The notes under the pieces: model-generated
What the model was told of the DNA's origin: nothing
Databases searched by the model: none
What the model saw: only the letters and a program-made list of their open reading frames with translations
Translations under genes and position numbers: made by a program
In this document: piece after piece, positions 2,652 through 14,912 of the stretch
Layout of the letters: every line of letters begins with the position of its first letter
How positions within the stretch are numbered: position 1 is the stretch's first letter
DNA from: Acutalibacteraceae bacterium
GTDB taxonomy: Bacteria > Bacillota > Clostridia > Oscillospirales > Acutalibacteraceae
Length of the DNA: 24,000 bases
Assembly: GCA_045590755.1 (NCBI GenBank)
Contig: JAZNRP010000024.1
Location: 127,083 to 151,082, forward strand
Reading direction: 5' to 3'

Positions 2652-5600
2652 ATGGCAACGCAAAAGATTACGCAGAAACAGCAGACCGAAAATGTCAATC
2701 CTGATGCGAGTCTGCTCGTTACTCAAAAGGAGAACGTCGAAGGCGTGGAGATGGAAGCCCTTCGCCGTGCTACCTTAGAAGCGGTTGTAAACGCTTTGCG
2801 TGAAAAAGGTATCAATGACGGATACCAAACAGAACAGGGTATCGTAGATATGTACCCGAACCTCGTTAAAAGCATTGACCCGATTGAAACGGGTATCCGC
2901 ATTTCGTTTTGGGACGAAACCTCGATGGATATTCCGATTGAAAGTGGTGGCTTGGCTTTCGATGAGGTCTCCTACAATCAGGAAACGGGCTATTTACACA
3001 TTATGCTCGAAGGTGAGGATGTTGTGGCTCCGTGCTATATCGGAGGTGGCGGTGGCGGAGGTTCATCGTCCGGTACGGTCGTAAAGGTTACGAATACGAC
3101 AGGTGCCGCATCCTTGACAGTTGCTCACGGAGAGCCTGTAGAAATCAGCTTCACATACTACGACTATGACGGAGACGGAGAGTTTACCAACAGTAGCGGT
3201 ACGCTCGAAATCTCTGTAAACAGCAATGTCGTTATTCAGAAGAATATCGAGCAGGGTGCTCACACCTACGATGTCGGTCCATATTTGACGGCAGGCTCGA
3301 ACAAAATCAAAGTCAAGGTTACTGACGAAGACGATATGTACGGTATGAAGACTTGGACCGTAAATGCGGTTGCTTTGTCTATCAGTTCCGTGTTCGATGA
3401 TACCGTTGTAAACGAAGGTGATGTTACTTTCCGTTACACGCCTATCGGTGCGAACATTGAGAAGACCGTCCATTTCGAGATTGATGGAGAAGAGGCTGCT
3501 ACCGCAATCGTTACCGCCTCGAACCGTCAGCAGACACAAATTATCCCTGCACAGTCTCACGGTGCTCATCCGTTAAAGGTATATATCACCGCCGAGGTTG
3601 ATGGCGTGGCTGTAACGAGTAATATTCTTGAATACGATGTAATTTGGGTTGAAGAAGGAAACGACACGCTTATCTTCGCTTGCAGTTTCAACGATAAGGT
3701 GAAACAATACAGCACCGTGCTCATCCCTTGGATTGCCCACAATCCTACGAGTTTGACCTCTAATGTAGAACAGTATATCGAAGGTGAGTTGCACGCCAAC
3801 CTTACGGTTGGCAGAAACGTGCAATATTGGAGTTATAAGCCGACCACGCCGGGCAACAAAACCCTTATGCTTAAAAGCGGAGATGTTGAAAAAACCATCA
3901 TCGTTCCCGTTGAGGACATTGGTATTACCGTTGAGCCTGTTACGAACGGTCTCGTTATGGACCTCAACCCCGCAGGTCATACCAACAGCGATGACGACAA
4001 GGAGCAGTTCGGTTACACAGACGCAAACGGTGTGAACCATCCGTTGGTATTCTCGCCCAACTTCGATTGGGTGAACGGTGGTTTCCAAACGGACGCAGAC
4101 GGCGGCACATACCTCTGTGTTAAGTGCGGAACCTATGTAGAACTCGACCGCAGTTTGTTCGATACCGATGTTATTGCAAACGGTAAAGAAATCAAGGCGG
4201 TCTTCCGTGCTGCCAAATGCCGTGATTATGATGCTCAGGTAATGAGCTGTATCAGCGGAGGCATCGGCTTGGTGCTTCAGGCACAGAAAGCCACCCTAAA
4301 ATCCTTGCAGACCACCCTCGAAGTTCCTTACTGCGAAGACAGTATGATTGAGATGGATGTCAACATCGAGCCCGGCTCAAAGGACAATGTAATGATGGTA
4401 TGGCTCGAAGGTGTACCGTCAAGAGTTGCCATTTATCCTGATGAGAACGAAGATTTCACTCAGGATAACCCGACTCCGCTTGTCATCGGCTCGAACGACT
4501 GCGATGTGCATATTTACCGCATCAAAGTCTATGATAACGACCTCACACAGTACGAAATCCACGAAAATTGGATTGCGGACGCTCCTAACGGCGAAGAGAT
4601 GGTGAACCGTTACAACCGTAACAACATCTACGACCAAAACGGAGACATTGACGTACAGAAGCTCATCACTCAGAACCCGAATTTGAGAGTGCTCGAAATC
4701 ACGGCACCCAAGATGACTACGGGTAAAGAAGATGAAGTTACCTGTACCGTAAAGCACACCTACGGAGCAGGCGGTAAAGCCCATAAGTTCGTGGGCGAAG
4801 GCGTTATTATGAAAGCTCAGGGTACATCGTCTATGCAGTATGGTACTGCGGCGTACAACCTTGACCTTGAATTCCCGAACGGCTTCGAGTTCGATGACGG
4901 AACCACTCAGGGATATTACAGTATGACTGCCAACAGTATCGGCGTAAACTACTTCAACATTAAGTTGAATGTTGCTTCATCCGAAAACGCTAACAACGTC
5001 ATTATGGCGGCAGAATACAACGATTTCCAACCGTACCTGAACCCCGCAAGAGTGGCGAACCCCAAGGTGAGAGATACCGTAGAGGGTCAGCCTTGTGTTG
5101 TTTTCTTCACGAACAGCAGCGAGGAGACCATTCAGGTAGGTGCTTTGACCGCAGAACCCGGACAGACCATTATGTACGGTTGTGGGGATATGAACAACTC
5201 CAAGAAAAACTTTGCCGTATTCGGTCAGCAGGATAACCCCGTTCAGGCTTGTGTTGAGATAATGAACAACACGAACAACCCTTGTTTGTGGAAGAGCGAC
5301 GACCTCACAGATGAACTGTGGGACGGCGAGGGGTCTTTCGAGTTCAGATACCCGAAGAAGCCTACCGCCGAGCATAAAGCCGCTTTTCAGCGTGTGCTGT
5401 CTTGGGTAGTATCTACCGACAGAACTGCCGCAACGGGTGCTACGCTCGCTCAGGCGGTTGAATATGACGGTGTTACCTACACCACAGACACAGCCGAGTA
5501 TCGTGCGGCTAAGTTCGTTGCAGAGCTCGAAGATTATTTCATCAAGGACTCTGTACTGTATCATTACCTGTTCACCGAAAGACATTCGATGGTTGATAAC

Positions 5601-8600
5601 CGTGCTAAGAACGTGTTCGTATCCACCGATGACGGTATCCATTGGGACTTCACAAAAGACTACGATAACGATACCGCAGACGGAAACGATAACGAAGGCG
5701 GCTTGACCTTGACCTATGGCTTGGAAGACATCGACACCATCGGTACAAAAGATGTTTTCAACGCATCGAGCTCGGTTCTTTGGTGCAACGTAAGAGACCT
5801 GCTCTTCGATGATTTGCAGTCTCTCTATCAGACCCTCGAAACCAAGGGTGCTTGGAATGCTCAGCGTATTCTTGCTCGTTTCAACGCTTATCAGGCGGCA
5901 AGACCTGAAGCCCTAATCATCGAGGATATGTGGAAGAAGTATATCAAGCCCTTTACCGTCTTAGGAAATGACGGCTACCTGAAGATGCTTTACGGCACCA
6001 AGAAAGACCAAAGAAATCAGTTCGAGGTCTATCAGGAGAAGTACATTTCGAGTAAGTATCAGGGCTCTGCGGCTACTTCCGATACGATTACTTTCCGTGC
6101 ATACACGCCTACGAATTGGGCGGGTGTTGTTCCGAGTAAGGAGATGGAGATTACTCCGTATGCGGATATGTATGTAACGGTTAAGTCCGGTTCCGGCATC
6201 GCAAGAGAAAGAGCAAAGAGAGGTCAGAAAGTTACCTTGACCTGTCCTATCGACACCCTTAACGATACCGAAATCTATATCTACAACGCATCGAACATCG
6301 CAGATGTTGGTGATATTGCACCGCTTTATGTAGGTTACTTCAACATCGCTATGGCGACCAAGTTGAGACACTTGAAACTCGGCGACGGTGCGGATGGATA
6401 CAACAACACGAACGCCGAAAGCATTGGTGTTGGCAACAACGAACTGCTTGAAACCTTGGATATTAGGAACTGTCCTATGATAAGAGTATCGCTTGACTTG
6501 ACAGGATGCGATGCTCTTTCTTCTTTGGAGGCAGAGTGCGACAACTACGTACCTACCGATGCGGATGACGTTCCCGGTATCACAGGTGTAGCGTTCGCTC
6601 CCGGTGGCAAGATTGAGACCGCTCACTTGCCGACCGTAACGGCGTTCTCCGCTCGTGAGTTGAAGAGCCTCGAAGACTTGACATTCACAAGCCTCGACAG
6701 ACTCCGTTCGTTGAGAATTGAGAACTGCGGCACCATTGATGCTCTCGAAATCATTCAGAACACAATGCCTGAGAGCGAGGAAGATACAAAAGGCTTGACG
6801 AGAGCCCGTATCCTCGGCATCAGTTGGATACTGAACGACAGTAACGCTGATGTTCTCGACTACTTGGTAGAGTTGAAGGGCTTGAACGAAAGCGGTGCAA
6901 ACTCCGACCAATCGGTTGTTACCGGATACGCTTATGTTCCTACTATGAAAGCATCCGAGTTGAACGCTTATAGAGCGGCTTGGGGCTTCGACCTCGAACT
7001 CGAATGGCAGAGTTACGTAGAGCAGTATCTCGTAACGTTCGTCAACTACGATGGAAGCACGTTGCACACTCAGTATGTTGACCGTGGTATGGCGGCAGTT
7101 GACCCCGTTGAAGCGGGTATAATCGGCGAGCCTACAAGAGAAAGTTCCGTATCTACCGTTTACACCTACAACGGATGGGACAGCAGTTTGGCAAATATCA
7201 CGTCTGCGAAGACTGTTACGGCAACCTATGAAGAGTCGCTGAGACAGTACACAGTAAGATGGATTTCTCAGCTTGGCGTTATCCTCGAAACACAGACCGT
7301 AGGATACGGTCAATCGGCAACCTACACGGGCGATATTCCCACTCGAACCGATGAGGAGAGCTCGAAGATTTACCATCTGTTCAAGGGATGGAAACAGAGC
7401 ACCGGATACATCACGGGCGACCTCGATGTATGGGCTGATTGGGAGGATGGTTATGAACCCTCCGAAATCGTGGATACGCAGACACTCAATGCTGCACAGT
7501 TGTACGGATTTACCAAGGCAGGAAACGCTAAGAACTTCCTGTCTGTAAAGGACCGTGTGTTGATTACACTTGGTTTTGACCCCGACTACGACAATGTCGA
7601 TTATGTCGATTTGATTGAGGAACCTACCGTCCTTGACGGTGCTACCTGTATCGAGACCGAATTGCAACCGTTTAAGGACGGCATTGCAGACGGATGGACT
7701 CTTGTTGTGGACTGCGAATTCGATGAGACCACAGCAGACCAAACGATGGTATGTTGTATGCAGGAAAGCGGATATATGGGCTTCAAGGTCAAATATACGG
7801 GTGGTCCCTCGGTACAATGGTCCACCAACAGTTACAACAGCGGTGCTACGACCTACCGTGAGATTATGGTTATCCGTCATCTCCCCGGAAGTCGAAATGT
7901 TATCGTTTATTCCTCGAAAGCCTATGAGACGGCTATCGGTTACAAGGAATTGACGAAGACCATTGACACCCTCACAAATGCCAAGTTGTATATCGGTGCT
8001 ACCGTTACGGATGGCGGCGATATAGGCAACTACGCAACGGGTACACTCTACTCCCTGAGATTTTGGAAGGGCGACCTCGGGGATGCCGACTGCCGTAAGA
8101 TTGTTTCGTGGCCCCGAGAGACCTACACCTTTGAAGTGGGCGGTTTCGAGAACTATATACTCTCTGCCAACTCTGTTGAGAAGACGAGCGTGGATTTCAT
8201 CTGTGCTTCACTTCTCGAAAGAACCAAGCAGATGAACACAACCAATAGCAACGCAGGCGGCTTTGCAAATATGCCGATTTTCTCTTGGTTGCAGGGCAGA
8301 CTCTACGATGCTTTCCCGACTGTTTGGCGTAACTTTATGAAGCAGAGTGTTATCAACTACAACTGCTACGTAAACGGTACAGACTCAGACATTCAGGAGT
8401 GCGATGCTTATGTATGGCTCCCGTCCTATATCGAAATGCAGGGCGGTACGGCAGAACCGTGGATTTACGAGGGTAATTGGGTTACGTTCTTTACGAACAA
8501 TACCACTCGTTTGAAGTGGCAAGGTCATTGCCTCGCAAGAGACGTTGACGGCGGCTATCAGACATTCAGCCAAAGCACAGACCCCGCTACCGACACAACG

Positions 8601-8822
8601 AAGAATGTCAGAGATGGAGACCTGTGGATACACACAGGCGAGTCTTCTCGTGGTTATCTCCGTGTCAACGGCAAGTGGCTTGCCTCGTATAACTATTGGC
8701 TTCGTGGAGCCTCGGTCACTTACTCGACGGCCTTCTGCATTGTGTACTACTACGGCGGCGTGAACTACGGCGGCTACAACGCCAACTACAGCAGTGGCGT
8801 GTGCCCCCGCTTCTCAATCTAA
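2652..8822 (+). CDS. Giant (2056 aa) multidomain tail fibre / receptor-binding protein; DGR target (variable protein) with the VR at its extreme C-terminus
   Basis: An uninterrupted 6.2-kb ORF with RBS aaggggg upstream. It has a Gly/Ser linker (3042-3071) and several adhesin-type domain signatures, detailed in the findings. The last 47 codons contain the VR, which matches the downstream TR. Confidence 0.85.
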   Translation: MATQKITQKQQTENVNPDASLLVTQKENVEGVEMEALRRATLEAVVNALREKGINDGYQTEQGIVDMYPNLVKSIDPIETGIRISFWDETSMDIPIESGGLAFDEVSYNQETGYLHIMLEGEDVVAPCYIGGGGGGGSSSGTVVKVTNTTGAASLTVAHGEPVEISFTYYDYDGDGEFTNSSGTLEISVNSNVVIQKNIEQGAHTYDVGPYLTAGSNKIKVKVTDEDDMYGMKTWTVNAVALSISSVFDDTVVNEGDVTFRYTPIGANIEKTVHFEIDGEEAATAIVTASNRQQTQIIPAQSHGAHPLKVYITAEVDGVAVTSNILEYDVIWVEEGNDTLIFACSFNDKVKQYSTVLIPWIAHNPTSLTSNVEQYIEGELHANLTVGRNVQYWSYKPTTPGNKTLMLKSGDVEKTIIVPVEDIGITVEPVTNGLVMDLNPAGHTNSDDDKEQFGYTDANGVNHPLVFSPNFDWVNGGFQTDADGGTYLCVKCGTYVELDRSLFDTDVIANGKEIKAVFRAAKCRDYDAQVMSCISGGIGLVLQAQKATLKSLQTTLEVPYCEDSMIEMDVNIEPGSKDNVMMVWLEGVPSRVAIYPDENEDFTQDNPTPLVIGSNDCDVHIYRIKVYDNDLTQYEIHENWIADAPNGEEMVNRYNRNNIYDQNGDIDVQKLITQNPNLRVLEITAPKMTTGKEDEVTCTVKHTYGAGGKAHKFVGEGVIMKAQGTSSMQYGTAAYNLDLEFPNGFEFDDGTTQGYYSMTANSIGVNYFNIKLNVASSENANNVIMAAEYNDFQPYLNPARVANPKVRDTVEGQPCVVFFTNSSEETIQVGALTAEPGQTIMYGCGDMNNSKKNFAVFGQQDNPVQACVEIMNNTNNPCLWKSDDLTDELWDGEGSFEFRYPKKPTAEHKAAFQRVLSWVVSTDRTAATGATLAQAVEYDGVTYTTDTAEYRAAKFVAELEDYFIKDSVLYHYLFTERHSMVDNRAKNVFVSTDDGIHWDFTKDYDNDTADGNDNEGGLTLTYGLEDIDTIGTKDVFNASSSVLWCNVRDLLFDDLQSLYQTLETKGAWNAQRILARFNAYQAARPEALIIEDMWKKYIKPFTVLGNDGYLKMLYGTKKDQRNQFEVYQEKYISSKYQGSAATSDTITFRAYTPTNWAGVVPSKEMEITPYADMYVTVKSGSGIARERAKRGQKVTLTCPIDTLNDTEIYIYNASNIADVGDIAPLYVGYFNIAMATKLRHLKLGDGADGYNNTNAESIGVGNNELLETLDIRNCPMIRVSLDLTGCDALSSLEAECDNYVPTDADDVPGITGVAFAPGGKIETAHLPTVTAFSARELKSLEDLTFTSLDRLRSLRIENCGTIDALEIIQNTMPESEEDTKGLTRARILGISWILNDSNADVLDYLVELKGLNESGANSDQSVVTGYAYVPTMKASELNAYRAAWGFDLELEWQSYVEQYLVTFVNYDGSTLHTQYVDRGMAAVDPVEAGIIGEPTRESSVSTVYTYNGWDSSLANITSAKTVTATYEESLRQYTVRWISQLGVILETQTVGYGQSATYTGDIPTRTDEESSKIYHLFKGWKQSTGYITGDLDVWADWEDGYEPSEIVDTQTLNAAQLYGFTKAGNAKNFLSVKDRVLITLGFDPDYDNVDYVDLIEEPTVLDGATCIETELQPFKDGIADGWTLVVDCEFDETTADQTMVCCMQESGYMGFKVKYTGGPSVQWSTNSYNSGATTYREIMVIRHLPGSRNVIVYSSKAYETAIGYKELTKTIDTLTNAKLYIGATVTDGGDIGNYATGTLYSLRFWKGDLGDADCRKIVSWPRETYTFEVGGFENYILSANSVEKTSVDFICASLLERTKQMNTTNSNAGGFANMPIFSWLQGRLYDAFPTVWRNFMKQSVINYNCYVNGTDSDIQECDAYVWLPSYIEMQGGTAEPWIYEGNWVTFFTNNTTRLKWQGHCLARDVDGGYQTFSQSTDPATDTTKNVRDGDLWIHTGESSRGYLRVNGKWLASYNYWLRGASVTYSTAFCIVYYYGGVNYGGYNANYSSGVCPRFSI
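8676..8815 (+). repeat. DGR variable repeat (VR)
   Basis: It aligns without gaps to 9726-9865 at an offset of exactly 1050 nt, with 122 of 140 positions identical. Of the 18 mismatches, 17 fall where the TR has A (VR has T x9, G x6, C x2). The one non-A mismatch (8811) is at the 3' end. Confidence 0.93.
8796..8815 (+). promoter_or_regulatory. Putative IMH (initiation of mutagenic homing) at the 3' end of VR
   Basis: The GC-rich 3' end of VR, ggcgtgtgcccccgcttctc, compares with ggcgtgtgcccccgactctc in TR. It contains the only non-adenine VR/TR difference (8811 T vs 9861 C), as expected for an IMH versus IMH* pair. The boundaries are inferred. Confidence 0.45.
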
Positions 8823-8900: not shown

Positions 8901-9695
8901 ATGTCAGTACATCGTAGCGACCGTAAGATAGCCTTTATGGAGTTTGTAAGGCAGATGTCGAGATTACACCGCCATACTCACGAACGGTTGAGGTCGCTCC
9001 CGGCAAGGTACAAACGGTACATCGTACCGAAAATCAGTCGTCCACTCAACACGGCATACAGTTCGGTCATCCTCGCAAATGAACAGAACGCAAGAACGGC
9101 TCTCGGTGCTCGGCAACGGGCGATGCTTTTCGATAGGGCTATAAAATGCCTGAAAGAAATGCAAGAGCCGTTGTTTGCTGTATGGAATTTGCTCGATGTT
9201 ACCGAGTCGGGCTGTGATTATTGGATTGAAATGATTAACTATGAATTCGCCTTGCTTTATGGCGTTGCGAAATTGGAAGGAAAACCGCCGATGTTTTTTA
9301 CGATACCTCGGAGAAAGATTGAAAAACTGAACTTCTTGAAAAAGATGTGTGAACTGCATAAGTACACCTATCAGAAACTCGGTCACGCTCCTGAATATAC
9401 CCGTGAGGGCATCGGCGAACCTATCTCGAAGTTCATCAACAACGCTCTGTTTAATGTGTTCGATGCGAATAATATCGTGCCGACCACTCAGGCAGAGGCG
9501 GATAAAAGGGCGAAACGGTTTCAAGCGGCGGTTGACTCGCTCAACGCCTTGCAGACTCCGCTCCTTGCTCTTTGGAACATTATGGATTACAGCGAAAACA
9601 TAATGGATGAATGGTCGGGTCTTCTTGATGAAGAGCTTCGGCTCCTCGAAGGCTTGAAGAAAGCCGACAGGGAGCGATACAAAAATCTTCGGTGA
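8901..9695 (+). CDS. avd: Avd-like accessory variability determinant (four-helix-bundle type), tandemly duplicated (264 aa)
   Basis: It sits between VR and TR, exactly where avd sits in canonical DGRs. The protein is basic and predicted to be all-helical. Its two halves align with each other (RKIAFMEFVRQMSRLHRHTHERL vs RKIEKLNFLKKMCELHKYTYQKL; LKEMQEPLFAVWNLLDV vs LNALQTPLLALWNIMDY). RBS ggaaagga lies 9 nt upstream. Confidence 0.7.
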   Translation: MSVHRSDRKIAFMEFVRQMSRLHRHTHERLRSLPARYKRYIVPKISRPLNTAYSSVILANEQNARTALGARQRAMLFDRAIKCLKEMQEPLFAVWNLLDVTESGCDYWIEMINYEFALLYGVAKLEGKPPMFFTIPRRKIEKLNFLKKMCELHKYTYQKLGHAPEYTREGIGEPISKFINNALFNVFDANNIVPTTQAEADKRAKRFQAAVDSLNALQTPLLALWNIMDYSENIMDEWSGLLDEELRLLEGLKKADRERYKNLR

Positions 9696-9725
9696 AAGGA
9701 GAATATGGGCGGTATTCTATCATCT

Positions 9726-9865
9726 TGGCTTGCCTCGAATAACTATTGGCTTCGTGGAGCCTCGGTCACTAACTCGACGAACTTCTGCAATGTGAACAAC
9801 AACGGCAACGTGAACAACAACGGCAACAACGCCAACAACAGCAATGGCGTGTGCCCCCGACTCTC
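9726..9865 (+). repeat. DGR template repeat (TR)
   Basis: This is the intergenic copy of VR. By my count it holds 40 adenines, concentrated in 17 AAC/AAT codons when read in the VR frame. All but one of its differences from VR are at its adenines. Confidence 0.93.
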
Positions 9866-10140
9866 GTAATTAAAGTAACCAAGAATGAGGGTGAAACAAT
9901 CGAATTATGAGAAGGAGAATACAGCCCTCCGGGAGAGACACCCGGTAAATAAATGACCGTTCTGCTTCAAGGACGGTGCACCACGTCCGGTGCCGCAGTT
10001 ATAGACGGGAGGACGCTTCTTGCATAGCGGTAAAATGTCCGCCTTTTGCCGTTTTATTCCCGTGGCTATATACCCGATATAATCTGACGGAAACTCCGAA
10101 AACGGTTGATTGCCGCAATGGAGAACTATAACAAATCGGG
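9866..10140 (+). ncRNA. TR-to-RT spacer, probably part of the DGR template/priming RNA
   Basis: This 275-nt stretch has no credible ORF and lies between TR and the RT start. It contains short GC-rich stem-loops that exclude one another (ggacg/cgtcc 9971-9988; gcacc/ggtgc 9978-9993) and a cggtaaaa/ttttgccg hairpin (10028-10051). The function is assumed by analogy with the Bordetella phage BPP-1 spacer RNA. Confidence 0.35.
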
Positions 10141-11382
10141 ATGTGCGTAGGCGAACTATATCTTATGAGCAATCAAGAAAGAATTCAGGCTCGAATTGCC
10201 CGTGATAAAGCAAGGAAAGCCGCTAAAAGACAGGCTGCCGTCGAGAAACACGGCACCTATGAAAATGTTATAACCCTGCAAAACCTGCACCGTTCTCTGC
10301 GGAAACGCCGAAAGAACGTGGAATGGAAAGGCAGCGTTCAATCGTACCTCGCTCACGCTATCGTAAAGATAAAACGGTCGAAGGACGAACTGCTTCGTGG
10401 AGAAGTCAATATCAACAGAGCGATAAAGCGAATGACTATCTATGAGAGAGGCAAACGCCGAGATATTCACGCCATTATGATTGACAGCCGTGTCATTCAA
10501 GGTGTGCTTTGTGATGCTTCAATCACTCCGCTTACTCAGCCCTCGCTGATATACGATAACCCTGCGAGCACCAAGCATAAGGGCATATCTCACGCCCGAA
10601 ACCGCATATTGAAGATGCTCCGTGAGCAGATAAAGCGAAGCGGACCGAATTCGTATGCTTTACTTACCGACTATACCGGATTTTTTGACAGTATTCCCCA
10701 CGCAGTTTGCAAGGAGAAGTTGAAAAAGGCAGGTATGGACGATAGACTGTGCGACCTAACGATGTCGTATATCAAGATGTATCAGGCTCAGGACTATTCG
10801 TTTATCGAAGACCCCGTAGAGCGTGAGCAAATGTATATCAAACTCGCCAACGATGAGGACTCGGGAGCCACCCTCGGAAGTCAGATTTCGCAGGATATGG
10901 CTTTGGTTGTCCCGAACGATGTGGACCACGCTGTCAAAGATAGGTGCGGTATGAAAGGCTACATTCGGTATATGGATGATAGTTATACCGGGCACGGCGA
11001 CAAGCAGGTTCTTCAGGCGGTTTATGATGTCATCAAACAGGAGAGCAACGCCATCGGCTTGAAACTGAACGAAAAGAAGACCCATATCGTGAAGTTTACG
11101 AGAGGCTTTATGTTCCTGAAGGTGCATTACATCGTTACCGACACAGGCAAAATCATCAAGAAAATGGCAAAGGCAGGAATTGTCCGTATGAGGCGTAAGC
11201 TGAAGAAGTTTGTTCGTCTCGTACAGCAAGGTAAGATGCGGATGGACGATGTTTTCAACTCGTTCAACTCTTGGAGGGGCAACGCCAAGAAGTATTCGCA
11301 ATCGTACAGAGCAAGAAAGGCTATGCTTGTTCTGTATAACAAGTTGTTCAAACGATACAGAACGGGAGGTATAGCAGCGTGA
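10141..11382 (+). CDS. DGR-type reverse transcriptase
   Basis: RT motifs are present: LLTDYTGFFDSIPH (motif A), LGSQISQ (the DGR-typical SQ motif B), YMDD (motif C) and GFMFLK (motif E). The N-terminal NLHRSLRKRRKNVEWKGSVQSY and IYERGKRRDIHAIMIDSRVIQGVL resemble DGR RT finger motifs. The start is uncertain: ATG 10141 or in-frame ATG 10165, and neither has a clear SD. Confidence 0.9.
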   Translation: MCVGELYLMSNQERIQARIARDKARKAAKRQAAVEKHGTYENVITLQNLHRSLRKRRKNVEWKGSVQSYLAHAIVKIKRSKDELLRGEVNINRAIKRMTIYERGKRRDIHAIMIDSRVIQGVLCDASITPLTQPSLIYDNPASTKHKGISHARNRILKMLREQIKRSGPNSYALLTDYTGFFDSIPHAVCKEKLKKAGMDDRLCDLTMSYIKMYQAQDYSFIEDPVEREQMYIKLANDEDSGATLGSQISQDMALVVPNDVDHAVKDRCGMKGYIRYMDDSYTGHGDKQVLQAVYDVIKQESNAIGLKLNEKKTHIVKFTRGFMFLKVHYIVTDTGKIIKKMAKAGIVRMRRKLKKFVRLVQQGKMRMDDVFNSFNSWRGNAKKYSQSYRARKAMLVLYNKLFKRYRTGGIAA

Positions 11383-11867
11383 ATTACTATAAGATTATCG
11401 AAAACGGTACGGTTATTGATGCGAACTGCATTTTCCTGAAATGGCAGAAGAAGAACAATATCCTTATCGGTTGCGATGCTTCGGAGGCGAACTTCATTCA
11501 GTCGTCCGACCAACAGAAAGTTTGGAAGGTCGATTGGCTCATTCCCGCCGATGCAAAAGCAGGTGAATACCCGTCTATCGAGGCGGTCGAAATCACCAAG
11601 GAAGAATATGACGAACTCAGGGCTCAGCTCGATGCAGGACTTAACCCCGAAGTCCCCGAAGAAGAGCCCGAAATCCCCTCGGATACTGATGAGCCGGGAG
11701 ATGAAGTTCCATCCGAGCCTGTGATGAGTGTCGAAGAAATGAGACGCAAAATCACGATGTTGGAGACTGCTCTTGAAGAGCAGAAAATCATCAACGGTGA
11801 GCAGATGGAGAGGAATGATTTCCTCGAAGGCTGTTTGCTTGAAATGTCGGAAATCGTCTATGGTTAG
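11379..11867 (+). CDS. Hypothetical protein (acidic, coiled-coil C-terminus; possibly an XkdW-like tail-fibre-associated protein)
   Basis: Its GTG start overlaps the RT stop (GTGA), with gggagg 10 nt upstream. It is 162 aa with an acidic Pro/Glu-rich linker and the C-terminal sequence LEGCLLEMSEIVYG. Confidence 0.6.
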   Translation: MNYYKIIENGTVIDANCIFLKWQKKNNILIGCDASEANFIQSSDQQKVWKVDWLIPADAKAGEYPSIEAVEITKEEYDELRAQLDAGLNPEVPEEEPEIPSDTDEPGDEVPSEPVMSVEEMRRKITMLETALEEQKIINGEQMERNDFLEGCLLEMSEIVYG

Positions 11868-12288: not shown

Positions 12289-12699
12289 ATGGACGAATTT
12301 CTCAAAATCGCCCTTGTGGGAGTGTTTTCAGGCGGCATTGGTGTCGCAATCATCGAAGTCGTCAAGGAAAGCATTGCTTTTAGACGTAAGCGTAAAGCCG
12401 AAAAAGAAGACAAGGCTGAAGCGAAAATCGAGCGTGCGGAGGCTGAGGAAAAAAAGAGAACAGACGAGCGGTTAGACCGCATCGAAGAGCAGAACAAAGC
12501 GATAGTCGAAGGACTTCGTGTTATGCTGCTCGACCGTGTTCTTTACCTCGGTCAAGGATACATTGACAAGGGCGAGATTACCTACGACGAAAGGCATCGT
12601 TTCCACCAAATGCACGACTGTTATCACGACGGTCTCGGTGGCAATGGCGATGCCGACCTCATTGTTGAAGCGGTAGATGAACTGCCGCCCAAAAGATAA
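12289..12699 (+). CDS. Membrane-anchored coiled-coil protein of the lysis module (possible holin-associated protein)
   Basis: RBS aaaggagag. It has an N-terminal TM helix (IALVGVFSGGIGVAIIEVV), then a Lys/Glu coiled coil and a conserved-looking C-terminal domain (YDERHRFHQMHDCYHDGLGGNG). Confidence 0.55.
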   Translation: MDEFLKIALVGVFSGGIGVAIIEVVKESIAFRRKRKAEKEDKAEAKIERAEAEEKKRTDERLDRIEEQNKAIVEGLRVMLLDRVLYLGQGYIDKGEITYDERHRFHQMHDCYHDGLGGNGDADLIVEAVDELPPKR

Positions 12700-12712
12700 G
12701 GAGGGACCTTGT

Positions 12713-13039
12713 ATGGAACCGCAGAATATAAAACACGCCAAACCCAAAAAGAAGAACATCTTCGAGAGGATTGGCGTAATGAACCTCGCACTCTTATTTG
12801 TCGCTGTATCGGTCATCGTATTCACCGCAATAATGATTGACCTTTTCAAGACCTATGGTGCTATCCCTGATACCCTATGCCTCAGCGTGTTCGGTGTATT
12901 GGGAGGCGAATGTGGTCTTTTGGCGTGGATAAAGAATGTGAAAGAGAAGCACAGAGACCGCAAGGTCGAATTGGAAGACCGTGAATATTACGAAGAAAAA
13001 GAGAAAGCCGAGATGAGCGGCGGCTTTCCCGAAAACTGA
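12713..13039 (+). CDS. Putative holin (two TM helices)
   Basis: ATG 12713 has aaggaggg 7 nt upstream. Two hydrophobic helices (LALLFVAVSVIVFTAIMIDL; LCLSVFGVLGGECGLLAWI) are followed by a charged C-terminal tail. It lies immediately upstream of the endolysin. Confidence 0.6.
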   Translation: MEPQNIKHAKPKKKNIFERIGVMNLALLFVAVSVIVFTAIMIDLFKTYGAIPDTLCLSVFGVLGGECGLLAWIKNVKEKHRDRKVELEDREYYEEKEKAEMSGGFPEN

Positions 13040-13064
13040 TGCTCAACGAAGGAGGTAAACGGCT

Positions 13065-14912
13065 ATGACTAATTTGGAATTAGCCAACAAACTGATTGAC
13101 ATTGCCAAAAATGTTAAGACCCTTTATGTTATGGGAGGTATCGGCTATCCGCTTAATGCTAAGGGAAAGCAGAGAGCGTATAAGAACTCTTGGAATACCG
13201 ACCCGGACAGAGTGAAATTCATCGAAGCAGCATCGGACGACACTTTCGCTTTCGACTGTGTCTGCCTCATCAAGAGCGTGCTTTGGGGGTTCGTTGCAGA
13301 CCCCTCAAAGACCTATGGTGGTGCTGTGTATAAGGCAAACGGTGTCCCGGACATCGGTGCTGACACGATGATTACCAAATGCTCCGACATCTCTACCGAT
13401 TTCAGCAAGATTGAAATTGGTGAAGCTGTTTGGATGAAAGGTCATATCGGCGTATATGTAGGAAATGGTCTCGCCGTCGAGTGTACGCCTATTTGGGGGA
13501 ATGATGTGCAACTGACCGCCTGCAACTGCTCAAAGAGTGGTTACAACCGCCGTAATTGGACGAAGCACGGCAAGTTACCCTACATTACCTACGAAAATCA
13601 GGCAGTAGCAGAACCTACGCCTGACAAAAATACCCCTACCCTCAAAGAGATGTCCGCTGCGGATGCCGAAAAGGCGTTCTACAAGTATTTGACCGAAACT
13701 TTGGGGCTGAATTGTGCCGCCGCTTGTGGCGTTCTCGCCAACATCGCCGCCGAGTCAGCGTTCAGGTCCACCAACTTGCAGAACACCTACGAGAAGAAGC
13801 TCGGCTACACCGACACCGAATACACCCTTGCCGTAGATAACGGTTCTTACGATAATTTCGTAAAGGATGCCGCAGGCTATGGCTTCGCACAATGGACCTA
13901 TTGGAGCCGCAAGCAGAAGTTGCTTGAATTTGCCAAGAGCAAAGGCAAGTCTATCGGCGATGCCGAGATGCAGATGCAGTTCTTCGGTCAGGAAATCAAG
14001 GGCTATTCGGGCGTTTGGAAGACCTTGCAGAGCGTTCCTAACACCGCAGAGGGTGCCTACGAAGCAGGTCATAAGGTCTGCTACGATTATGAGGCTCCCG
14101 CCGCTAAGCAGACATCCGCTGTTACTCGTGGCAATAGTGCTAAGACCTACTTTGCGAAGTACGGCGGTTCTGCCGCTTCTTCCGGCAATGCAGGTTCTAC
14201 CGAAAAGCCTGTCGAGAGCGTTGATTATGCTATCGGCGACAAGGTGTATGTCAACGGTAAGATTTACGCCTACGGCAACGGCAAGGGCAACTCCTTGACA
14301 AAGAATAACGCAACGATGTATGTTTGCGATATTGTCGATAAGAAGACCTATCCTCACTACATCGGCGTTTCTGCCATCAAGGGCGGCACAAGACAGGGTT
14401 GGGCTAAGCCTGATATTCTGTCTAAGAGCAGTTCTGTTGCTCCCGCTAAGCCGACTACGACCACGAAGCCCACTACGACCGCAAAACCCGCCGAGACTGC
14501 TCCTGCTACGGGCTATGTCAACTACACGGTTGTCGGTGGTGATAACCTCACCAAAATTGCGGCTAAATTCAAGACCACCATCGCAAAGATTGTGGCGGCG
14601 AACAATATCAAGGATGCCAACAAGATTTGGGCGGGACAGGTGCTCAAAATCCCCTCTGCCTCTGCATCCGCATCGTCCAACGCAACGCCGACTGTCAATA
14701 AGACCTTTGCAAAAGGCGACGCAGTTATCGTTAATGGTACGATTACCGGATACGGCAACGGAGGTGGCGGTAGCATTGTAAAGAAAGGTGTAAGGATGTT
14801 CGTTTGCGACATCGTGGACTCCTCGACCTACAAGAACTACATCGGCGTTTCCGCTTATAAAGGCGGAGCCCGTCAGGGTTGGGCGAACCCGTCCATCTTG
14901 AAGAAAGCGTAA
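13065..14912 (+). CDS. Multidomain endolysin: NlpC/P60-like cysteine peptidase + phage-lysozyme2-type glycosidase + repeat / LysM / repeat cell-wall-binding region
   Basis: RBS gaaggagg. The peptidase motifs are the Cys motif FAFDCVCLIKS and the His motif KGHIGVYVGNG. The second domain (GVLANIAAESAF, GYGFAQWTYWSRKQKLLEFAK) is typical of phage tail lysozyme-type domains. A LysM lies at about 14515-14655 (YTVVGGDNLTKIAAKF, GQVLKIP). It is flanked by two copies of a roughly 70-aa repeat (14218-14427 and 14698-14909). Confidence 0.85.
   Translation: MTNLELANKLIDIAKNVKTLYVMGGIGYPLNAKGKQRAYKNSWNTDPDRVKFIEAASDDTFAFDCVCLIKSVLWGFVADPSKTYGGAVYKANGVPDIGADTMITKCSDISTDFSKIEIGEAVWMKGHIGVYVGNGLAVECTPIWGNDVQLTACNCSKSGYNRRNWTKHGKLPYITYENQAVAEPTPDKNTPTLKEMSAADAEKAFYKYLTETLGLNCAAACGVLANIAAESAFRSTNLQNTYEKKLGYTDTEYTLAVDNGSYDNFVKDAAGYGFAQWTYWSRKQKLLEFAKSKGKSIGDAEMQMQFFGQEIKGYSGVWKTLQSVPNTAEGAYEAGHKVCYDYEAPAAKQTSAVTRGNSAKTYFAKYGGSAASSGNAGSTEKPVESVDYAIGDKVYVNGKIYAYGNGKGNSLTKNNATMYVCDIVDKKTYPHYIGVSAIKGGTRQGWAKPDILSKSSSVAPAKPTTTTKPTTTAKPAETAPATGYVNYTVVGGDNLTKIAAKFKTTIAKIVAANNIKDANKIWAGQVLKIPSASASASSNATPTVNKTFAKGDAVIVNGTITGYGNGGGGSIVKKGVRMFVCDIVDSSTYKNYIGVSAYKGGARQGWANPSILKKA

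Follow-up and report, generated by a model that had tools for sequence, protein, structure and literature searches.

The window analysed here, a stretch of 24,000 nt, carries a DGR whose parts all lie on the + strand. The target gene (2652..8822) encodes a 2056-aa tail-fibre-like protein (phrog_14959, E 8e-91) with a C-terminal DUF6273 domain (aa 1860-2056; Pfam, E 1.4e-7) that carries the VR, and the VR itself occupies 140 nt at the 3′ end of the gene (8676..8815) and is 87% identical to the TR (9726..9865). The TR contains 40 adenines, and 17 of the 18 TR/VR mismatches fall at these positions. The RT gene (10141..11382) encodes 413 aa as its longest ORF (RVT_1, E 7e-15; phrog_1423, E 1.5e-58), with 42-79% identity to the RTs of 26 related DGR loci. 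With an adenine-specific TR/VR pair, an RT adjoining the TR and a target gene that carries the VR at its 3′ end, the cassette is a DGR, and it looks active. A further ORF (8901..9695) lies between the VR and the TR and therefore sits in the canonical avd position; its product has 264 aa and a pI of 9.46.

The DGR has the tail-fibre module on one side and the lysis module on the other, in a contractile-tail-type (pro)phage whose host is Gram-positive. Upstream, positions 50-2639 encode a baseplate wedge subunit (phrog_6), a baseplate/structural protein (DUF2612) and a tail-fibre protein; downstream, positions 12289-14912 encode two small membrane-type ORFs and a 615-aa endolysin (Phage_lysozyme2 and LysM). 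The TR lies inside a small mechanical ORF (9705-9869, + strand, 54 aa) that resembles the target C-terminus and is rich in Asn, with AAC at the variable positions; it is probably the usual appearance of a TR and not a gene. The longest RT ORF begins at ATG 10141 (MCVGELYL...), most relatives begin at the equivalent of ATG 10165 (MSNQERIQARIARDKARK...), and the extensions upstream of that equivalent are unconserved in the other loci. Because the relatives start at this second position (MSNQERIQ...), the real RT probably has 405 aa. An acidic 162-aa ORF (11379-11867, + strand) overlaps the RT stop by 4 nt, and locus L001 has a 161-aa gene in the same post-RT position. Its product has no Pfam or PHROG match, and the ORF may be a further conserved neighbour of the DGR lineage or merely the next phage gene.

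The 264-aa protein consists of two similar units in one chain. Unit 1 (8922..9278, aa 8-126) has helices at aa 14-30, 35-61, 67-97 (kinked) and 102-123; unit 2 (9312..9668, aa 138-256) has helices at aa 144-160, 165-190, 197-228 and 232-259; and the inter-unit linker (9270..9308, aa 124-136), which is ordered in the predicted model (DSSP, pLDDT), has a conserved P-M-F..L-P motif. BLASTP aligns aa 8-108 with aa 138-238 without gaps at 35% identity (E 3e-20), and the Smith-Waterman alignment of aa 8-126 with aa 138-256 scores 180, where 2000 shuffles score 27.0 +/- 4.6 with a maximum of 54 (z = 33.5). The score is among the highest in the family, whose median is 63. Further, the profiles of the N-halves and C-halves of 116 double Avds match each other with an hhalign probability of 99.4% (E 1.7e-21). 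The preliminary description had claimed an internal tandem duplication and had given two peptide pairs as examples; both pairs are found within the Smith-Waterman alignment of the halves, self-similarity is strongly significant in the single protein as well as between the half-profiles, and a real duplication is confirmed. A DNA-level repeat in the gene is absent (blastn returned chance words only, and the codon-register identity is 43%), and the duplication is therefore old.

An AlphaFold2 model of the single 264-aa chain, built on an alignment of 32 sequences, predicts two helical bundles (aa 14-123 and 137-259) connected by an ordered 13-residue linker, with a pLDDT of 91.5 and a pTM of 0.87. 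Foldseek comparisons with the PDB place the full-length model beside Bordetella Avd (4DWL, chain 4dwl_D; TM 0.85, rmsd 2.3 Å over 116 columns, probability 1.0) and 2GSC (TM 0.85-0.88, probability 1.0), with 2RLD also top-ranked. The predicted model has a four-helix-bundle fold like that of 4DWL, and the monomer prediction proposed in the preliminary description thus yields two bundles of the Avd superfamily. Modelled alone, the N-half has a pLDDT of 86 and matches 2GSC and 2RLD (TM 0.66-0.74, probability 0.99-1.0 for the best chains); 4DWL is not among the top 50 Foldseek matches of this model. The E-values of the double Avd models are weak (0.07-0.9) despite the probability of 1.0 and the high TM. 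In BFVD, the specific matches to the full-length model are 'Avd-like' or 'bAvd-like' proteins of 113-134 aa, with no double-length protein among them. Overall, the predicted structures support the assignment of both halves to the Avd / 23S-rRNA-IVS four-helix-bundle fold.

Sequence families recognise the two units unequally. The PHROG profile phrog_3206, 'Avd protein of DGR', matches the full protein at aa 141-264 (E 3.6e-10) and the C-half alone (E 1.3e-8); the N-half has no direct PHROG Avd match and is homologous to the C-half, so that unit 2 is the only unit recognised as Avd by sequence profiles. Pfam and NCBIfam scans of the protein and of each half reach no curated Avd model at threshold, and PF05635 (23S_rRNA_IVP) appears below threshold in one of 32 family members (E 0.033). 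Neither the family profile nor a profile of single-unit relatives, used in HMM searches of PDB sequences, gave more than chance matches, and a tblastn search of 50,697 GenBank phage records gave no match to the double Avd. The comparison of each half with Avd families, proposed in the preliminary description, accordingly gives a match for the C-half in PHROG and for the fold of both halves, and none in the curated Pfam models, which stay below threshold.

The single-unit relatives (131-146 aa; for example, P0158, P0210 and P0217) link the double Avd to classical Avds at the sequence level. All ten of those scanned match phrog_3206 over their full length, and a few have weak, sub-threshold Pfam scores for bAvd or 23S_rRNA_IVP; for the sister proteins, PF22296 (bAvd) gives E 2.5e-4 and 21.9 bits against a cut-off of 40. 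Their profile matches the C-half with an hhalign probability of 99.7% (E 3.8e-27), and single-unit Avds are about equally close to the N-half and C-half profiles (70-90 bits). The single-unit relatives that were looked up (L003, L032-L034) lie in the same target-Avd-TR-RT cassettes; in L033, the target is a 2100-aa DUF6273 protein.

A large family of phages of gut Clostridia shares the two-unit architecture. A cluster search that covered 5.8 billion proteins found 37 clusters (90% identity) at 42-100% identity to the double Avd, 32 of them at 263-266 aa and the others shorter or longer, and an exhaustive profile search of 1.84 billion representatives at 50% identity gave 359 matches, where 92 of the 150 best representatives are full-length doubles. 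The relatives come from gut MAGs of Clostridia (Eubacteriales, Ruminococcus) and their phages. In particular, 26 related loci were taken from Clostridia MAGs (goat, buffalo, rabbit, roe deer and human-type gut) and IMG/VR phage contigs; in every one, an intact double Avd ORF of 263-275 aa is followed by an RT about 450 nt downstream. The full VR-avd-TR-RT order is present in all 24 loci with enough upstream sequence, the TR lying about 30 nt downstream of the double Avd ORF, and the VR mismatches are nearly all at TR adenines (for example, 21/21, 16/16 and 22/23). This organisation is kept even where the Avd identity drops to 28-30%, and the protein co-diverges with the RT.

Natural split versions with only a C-half or only an N-half were considered and rejected; P0043 and P0103 are contig-edge truncations and P0085 is a frameshifted copy. 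In locus L031 (Logan SRR28794299 contig, 436-1130), the double avd gene is frameshifted just past the junction into ORFs of 149 aa and 82 aa, either through a sequencing error in a low-coverage contig or in a decaying copy.

A neighbour-joining tree separates 116 N-halves, 116 C-halves and 19 singles into three unmixed groups, which indicates that the double Avds arose from one ancient duplication that predates the radiation of the family. Moreover, the RTs of the doubles form one clade, sister to the RTs of the singles, and the fusion event therefore marks a DGR lineage. Single Avds start with MSVxKSKR and finish with KxDRERYKxL; in the doubles, the first of these motifs survives in unit 1 and the last in unit 2, as would be expected from a head-to-tail fusion whose inner ends have degenerated. 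Both units are under purifying selection (dN/dS 0.06-0.22). They differ in rate and charge, unit 1 being the faster-evolving and more basic and unit 2 the more conserved: the mean pairwise identity is 25% for N-halves vs 31% for C-halves, dN between the window and L010 is 0.198 for the N-half and 0.070 for the C-half, and the median net charge is +7.5 for N-halves vs +2 for C-halves, with N above C in 77% of proteins.

The spacer RNA region (9866..10140, + strand) has a conserved, covarying structure across 13 loci (RNAalifold). A 12-pair helix joins the TR 3′ end (9855-9871) to the spacer (9903-9915), two hairpins follow at 9929-9945 and 9956-9977, and compensatory changes occur in 14 of 28 pairs, including six of the eight in the hairpin at 9956-9977. 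The helix between the TR 3′ end and the spacer is reminiscent of the template:primer duplex (TR:Sp) of Bordetella. Directly after the TR, at the site of the Bordetella Avd-binding element, the 13-locus alignment has no obvious stem-loop of about 9 bp. The RTs that are paired with a double Avd carry a basic N-terminal helix (MTNQERIQARIARDKARKAEKR).

Taken together, the ORF at 8901..9695 very probably encodes the Avd of a phage DGR that is functional, with two units linked covalently in tandem after one ancient duplication-fusion. A single-unit Avd would have undergone one tandem duplication and fusion, giving the double Avd, in a DGR lineage of tail-fibre cassettes in phages of gut Clostridia. 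Because the RT has a basic N-terminal helix and the spacer covaries, we infer the same job as an RT/RNA platform for the double Avd. Like Bordetella Avd, it would bind the RT N-terminal extension and, downstream of the TR, the structured RNA of the spacer; this binding would position the template:primer duplex for adenine-mutagenic cDNA synthesis. The roles of the two units may have diverged: unit 2 retains the ancestral Avd sequence signature, and unit 1, the more basic and faster-evolving, would serve mainly in nucleic-acid binding.

The assembly of such a protein is best considered beside the Bordetella system, where Avd is a basic homopentamer of 128-aa chains that is required for RT activity. 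According to a cryo-EM preprint on that system, the RT N-terminal extension touches two of the five Avd protomers, all five touch a 5′-terminal stem-loop of the spacer RNA, the nearest approach of Avd to the active site is about 40 Å, and Avd tolerates the fusion of a pentameric protein to its C-terminus. Whole two-unit chains never sum to five units, and the assembly should therefore differ from the Bordetella homopentamer; altered stoichiometry or symmetry, already suggested for a fused double Avd in the preliminary description, is a reasonable expectation. Two or three chains may form a ring with an even number of units; five chains may give two five-fold rings stacked on each other, for which the tolerated Avd-Fae fusion offers an analogy, and this could keep the five-fold symmetry and alter only the unit count; or a mixed assembly may include a shorter isoform. 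The chances are about even that the double-Avd DGR RNP departs from bRT-Avd5-RNA as a pseudo-hexameric or pseudo-tetrameric ring, an asymmetric two-unit platform or stacked rings. In the asymmetric platform, as one option, units 1 and 2 would hard-wire the two RT-contacting protomer positions. If true, any such architecture would mean that Avd symmetry is not essential to adenine-mutagenic reverse transcription.

The differences between the units also allow a reading in which unit 2 alone is the working Avd, with unit 1 as a diverged addition that has taken on a new role outside a protomer-equivalent ring position; for example, an extra RNA/DNA-binding module or a phage-specific interaction module. 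The PHROG Avd profile recognises the C-half alone, 4DWL is retrieved by the full-length model alone (probably via the C-half) and is missing from the top 50 matches of the N-half, and the N-half has the lower identity, the higher dN and a different charge. However, the N-half has the same fold, as judged from 2GSC and 2RLD, and purifying selection acts on it as well (omega 0.07-0.20); the two half-profiles give single-unit Avds about the same score; and unit 1, not unit 2, has kept the MSVxKSKR motif of single Avds. A unit 1 without an Avd role is unlikely on this evidence, and a covalent tandem of two Avd units is preferred.

The junction between the units raises a second alternative, that the gene yields two products, the 264-aa chain and a 134-aa single-unit isoform initiated at Met131. 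The Met131 codon (ATG 9291-9293) lies at the unit junction after a purine-rich, Shine-Dalgarno-like stretch, and a Met or GTG is conserved at this position in relatives that are at least 43% identical. A GGAGG-type site is found 7-9 nt upstream of the junction start in many loci (L001, L004-L007, L011-L013, L016 and L018-L020), and in many relatives the junction site is the strongest Shine-Dalgarno-like site of the gene (-9.5 to -13.3 kcal/mol, top 1-3% of positions); moreover, gene callers pick Met131 as the start on truncated contigs. Two doubles and one 134-aa isoform might even restore the canonical five-unit ring (2+2+1). However, the site is weak in the window (-5.7 kcal/mol, 12th percentile), and shuffles of synonymous codons show no nucleotide-level selection, with per-locus p values of 0.03-0.46 that fall below 0.05 in the deep-branching L008 only. 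The motif is largely explained by the conserved K/R-E-E-x-x-P-M peptide. Further, among the six deep-branching doubles, four (L009, L024-L027; 28-30% identity) lack a Met where the junction aligns, and in L009 and L027 a start codon is missing altogether within two codons of this position. Translation of a second product is quite improbable in this light; the site may be left over from an ancestor with two genes or serve as an internal start.

The four-helix bundle is a widespread fold. A phage protein of a generic helical-bundle type, lying by chance between target and TR and without Avd function, would account for the modest Foldseek E-values and for the failure of any curated Avd family to reach threshold. 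This reading is very improbable: the top structures are specifically those of Avd and S23-IVS proteins (4DWL, 2GSC, 2RLD and the BFVD 'Avd-like' proteins) at probability 1.0, the PHROG Avd match has an E-value of 4e-10, the protein is accompanied by an RT in 26 of 26 loci and by a TR in 24 of 24 testable ones, down to 28% identity, and it co-diverges with the RT and has the basic pI typical of Avd (Wu et al. 2018). Lastly, the fusion of adjacent avd genes in this record only, through the loss of a stop or through an error of sequencing or assembly (the latter already considered in the preliminary description), is scarcely credible. Adjacent avd genes do exist (one of 372 DGRs has two separate avd genes; Wu et al. 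2018, PMC5758913), but the double ORF is uninterrupted in 26 independent loci and full-length in 92 of the 150 best representatives, the family spans 37 clusters, and the 'half' proteins are explained by truncation at contig edges or, in one low-coverage copy, by a frameshift.

The lineage of double Avds is natural and widespread, and can be read as an experiment by evolution on the tasks of the individual Avd surfaces; it also probes the need for five-fold symmetry. To our knowledge, Avd is the least understood essential DGR component, and the only solved complex is a symmetric Avd pentamer used asymmetrically. DGR annotation pipelines that search with Pfam Avd models or expect a length of 100-130 aa probably call double-Avd cassettes Avd-less, and the fixed heteromeric interface of a two-unit Avd could simplify the engineering of DGR directed-evolution tools. 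The openly searchable literature holds no description of a fused, tandem, duplicated or two-domain Avd, in line with the preliminary description, which knew of no characterised example; the double Avd is a real and apparently undescribed form of a known DGR component.

Several known systems can be compared with it. Wu et al. reported an average Avd pI of 9.5 +/- 0.7 and avd genes 'of similar length' (Wu et al. 2018, PMC5758913); the charge of the double Avd (pI 9.46) agrees with this value, and its 264 aa correspond to two units of ~130 aa vs the usual 110-130 aa. The DGR with two avd genes in that survey (PMC5758913) likewise has two Avd units for one DGR; unlike its two genes and two chains, the double Avd is a single conserved ORF with an ordered linker. 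The S23 / 23S rRNA-IVS proteins (PF05635; 2GSC, Xcc0516; 2RLD, BT_0352) are the best structural matches (TM 0.70-0.88), and 2GSC and 2RLD each appear in the hit tables with five chains, A-E. They differ from the double Avd in that they are single-unit proteins, many without a DGR link, with 13-18% identity to it. The single-unit Avds of Clostridia phages are the closest sequence relatives of each half and share the N-terminal MSVxKSKR and C-terminal KxDRERYKxL motifs with the double Avd; they differ in having one unit per chain and RTs of a sister clade, about 35% identical to that of the window. Unlike the 128-aa Bordetella BPP-1 Avd, the double Avd has two bundles in one 264-aa chain, its units have diverged (35% identity, different charge) and are missed by the Pfam bAvd model, and two-unit chains alone cannot form a homopentamer of equivalent units. 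In other respects, it resembles BPP-1 Avd (4DWL; PF22296 bAvd) in its cassette position (target-avd-TR-RT), its basic charge and its matching four-helix-bundle fold; the BPP-1 system, too, combines an RT that has a basic N-terminal extension with a spacer RNA that pairs, in its 5′ part, with the 3′ end of the TR.
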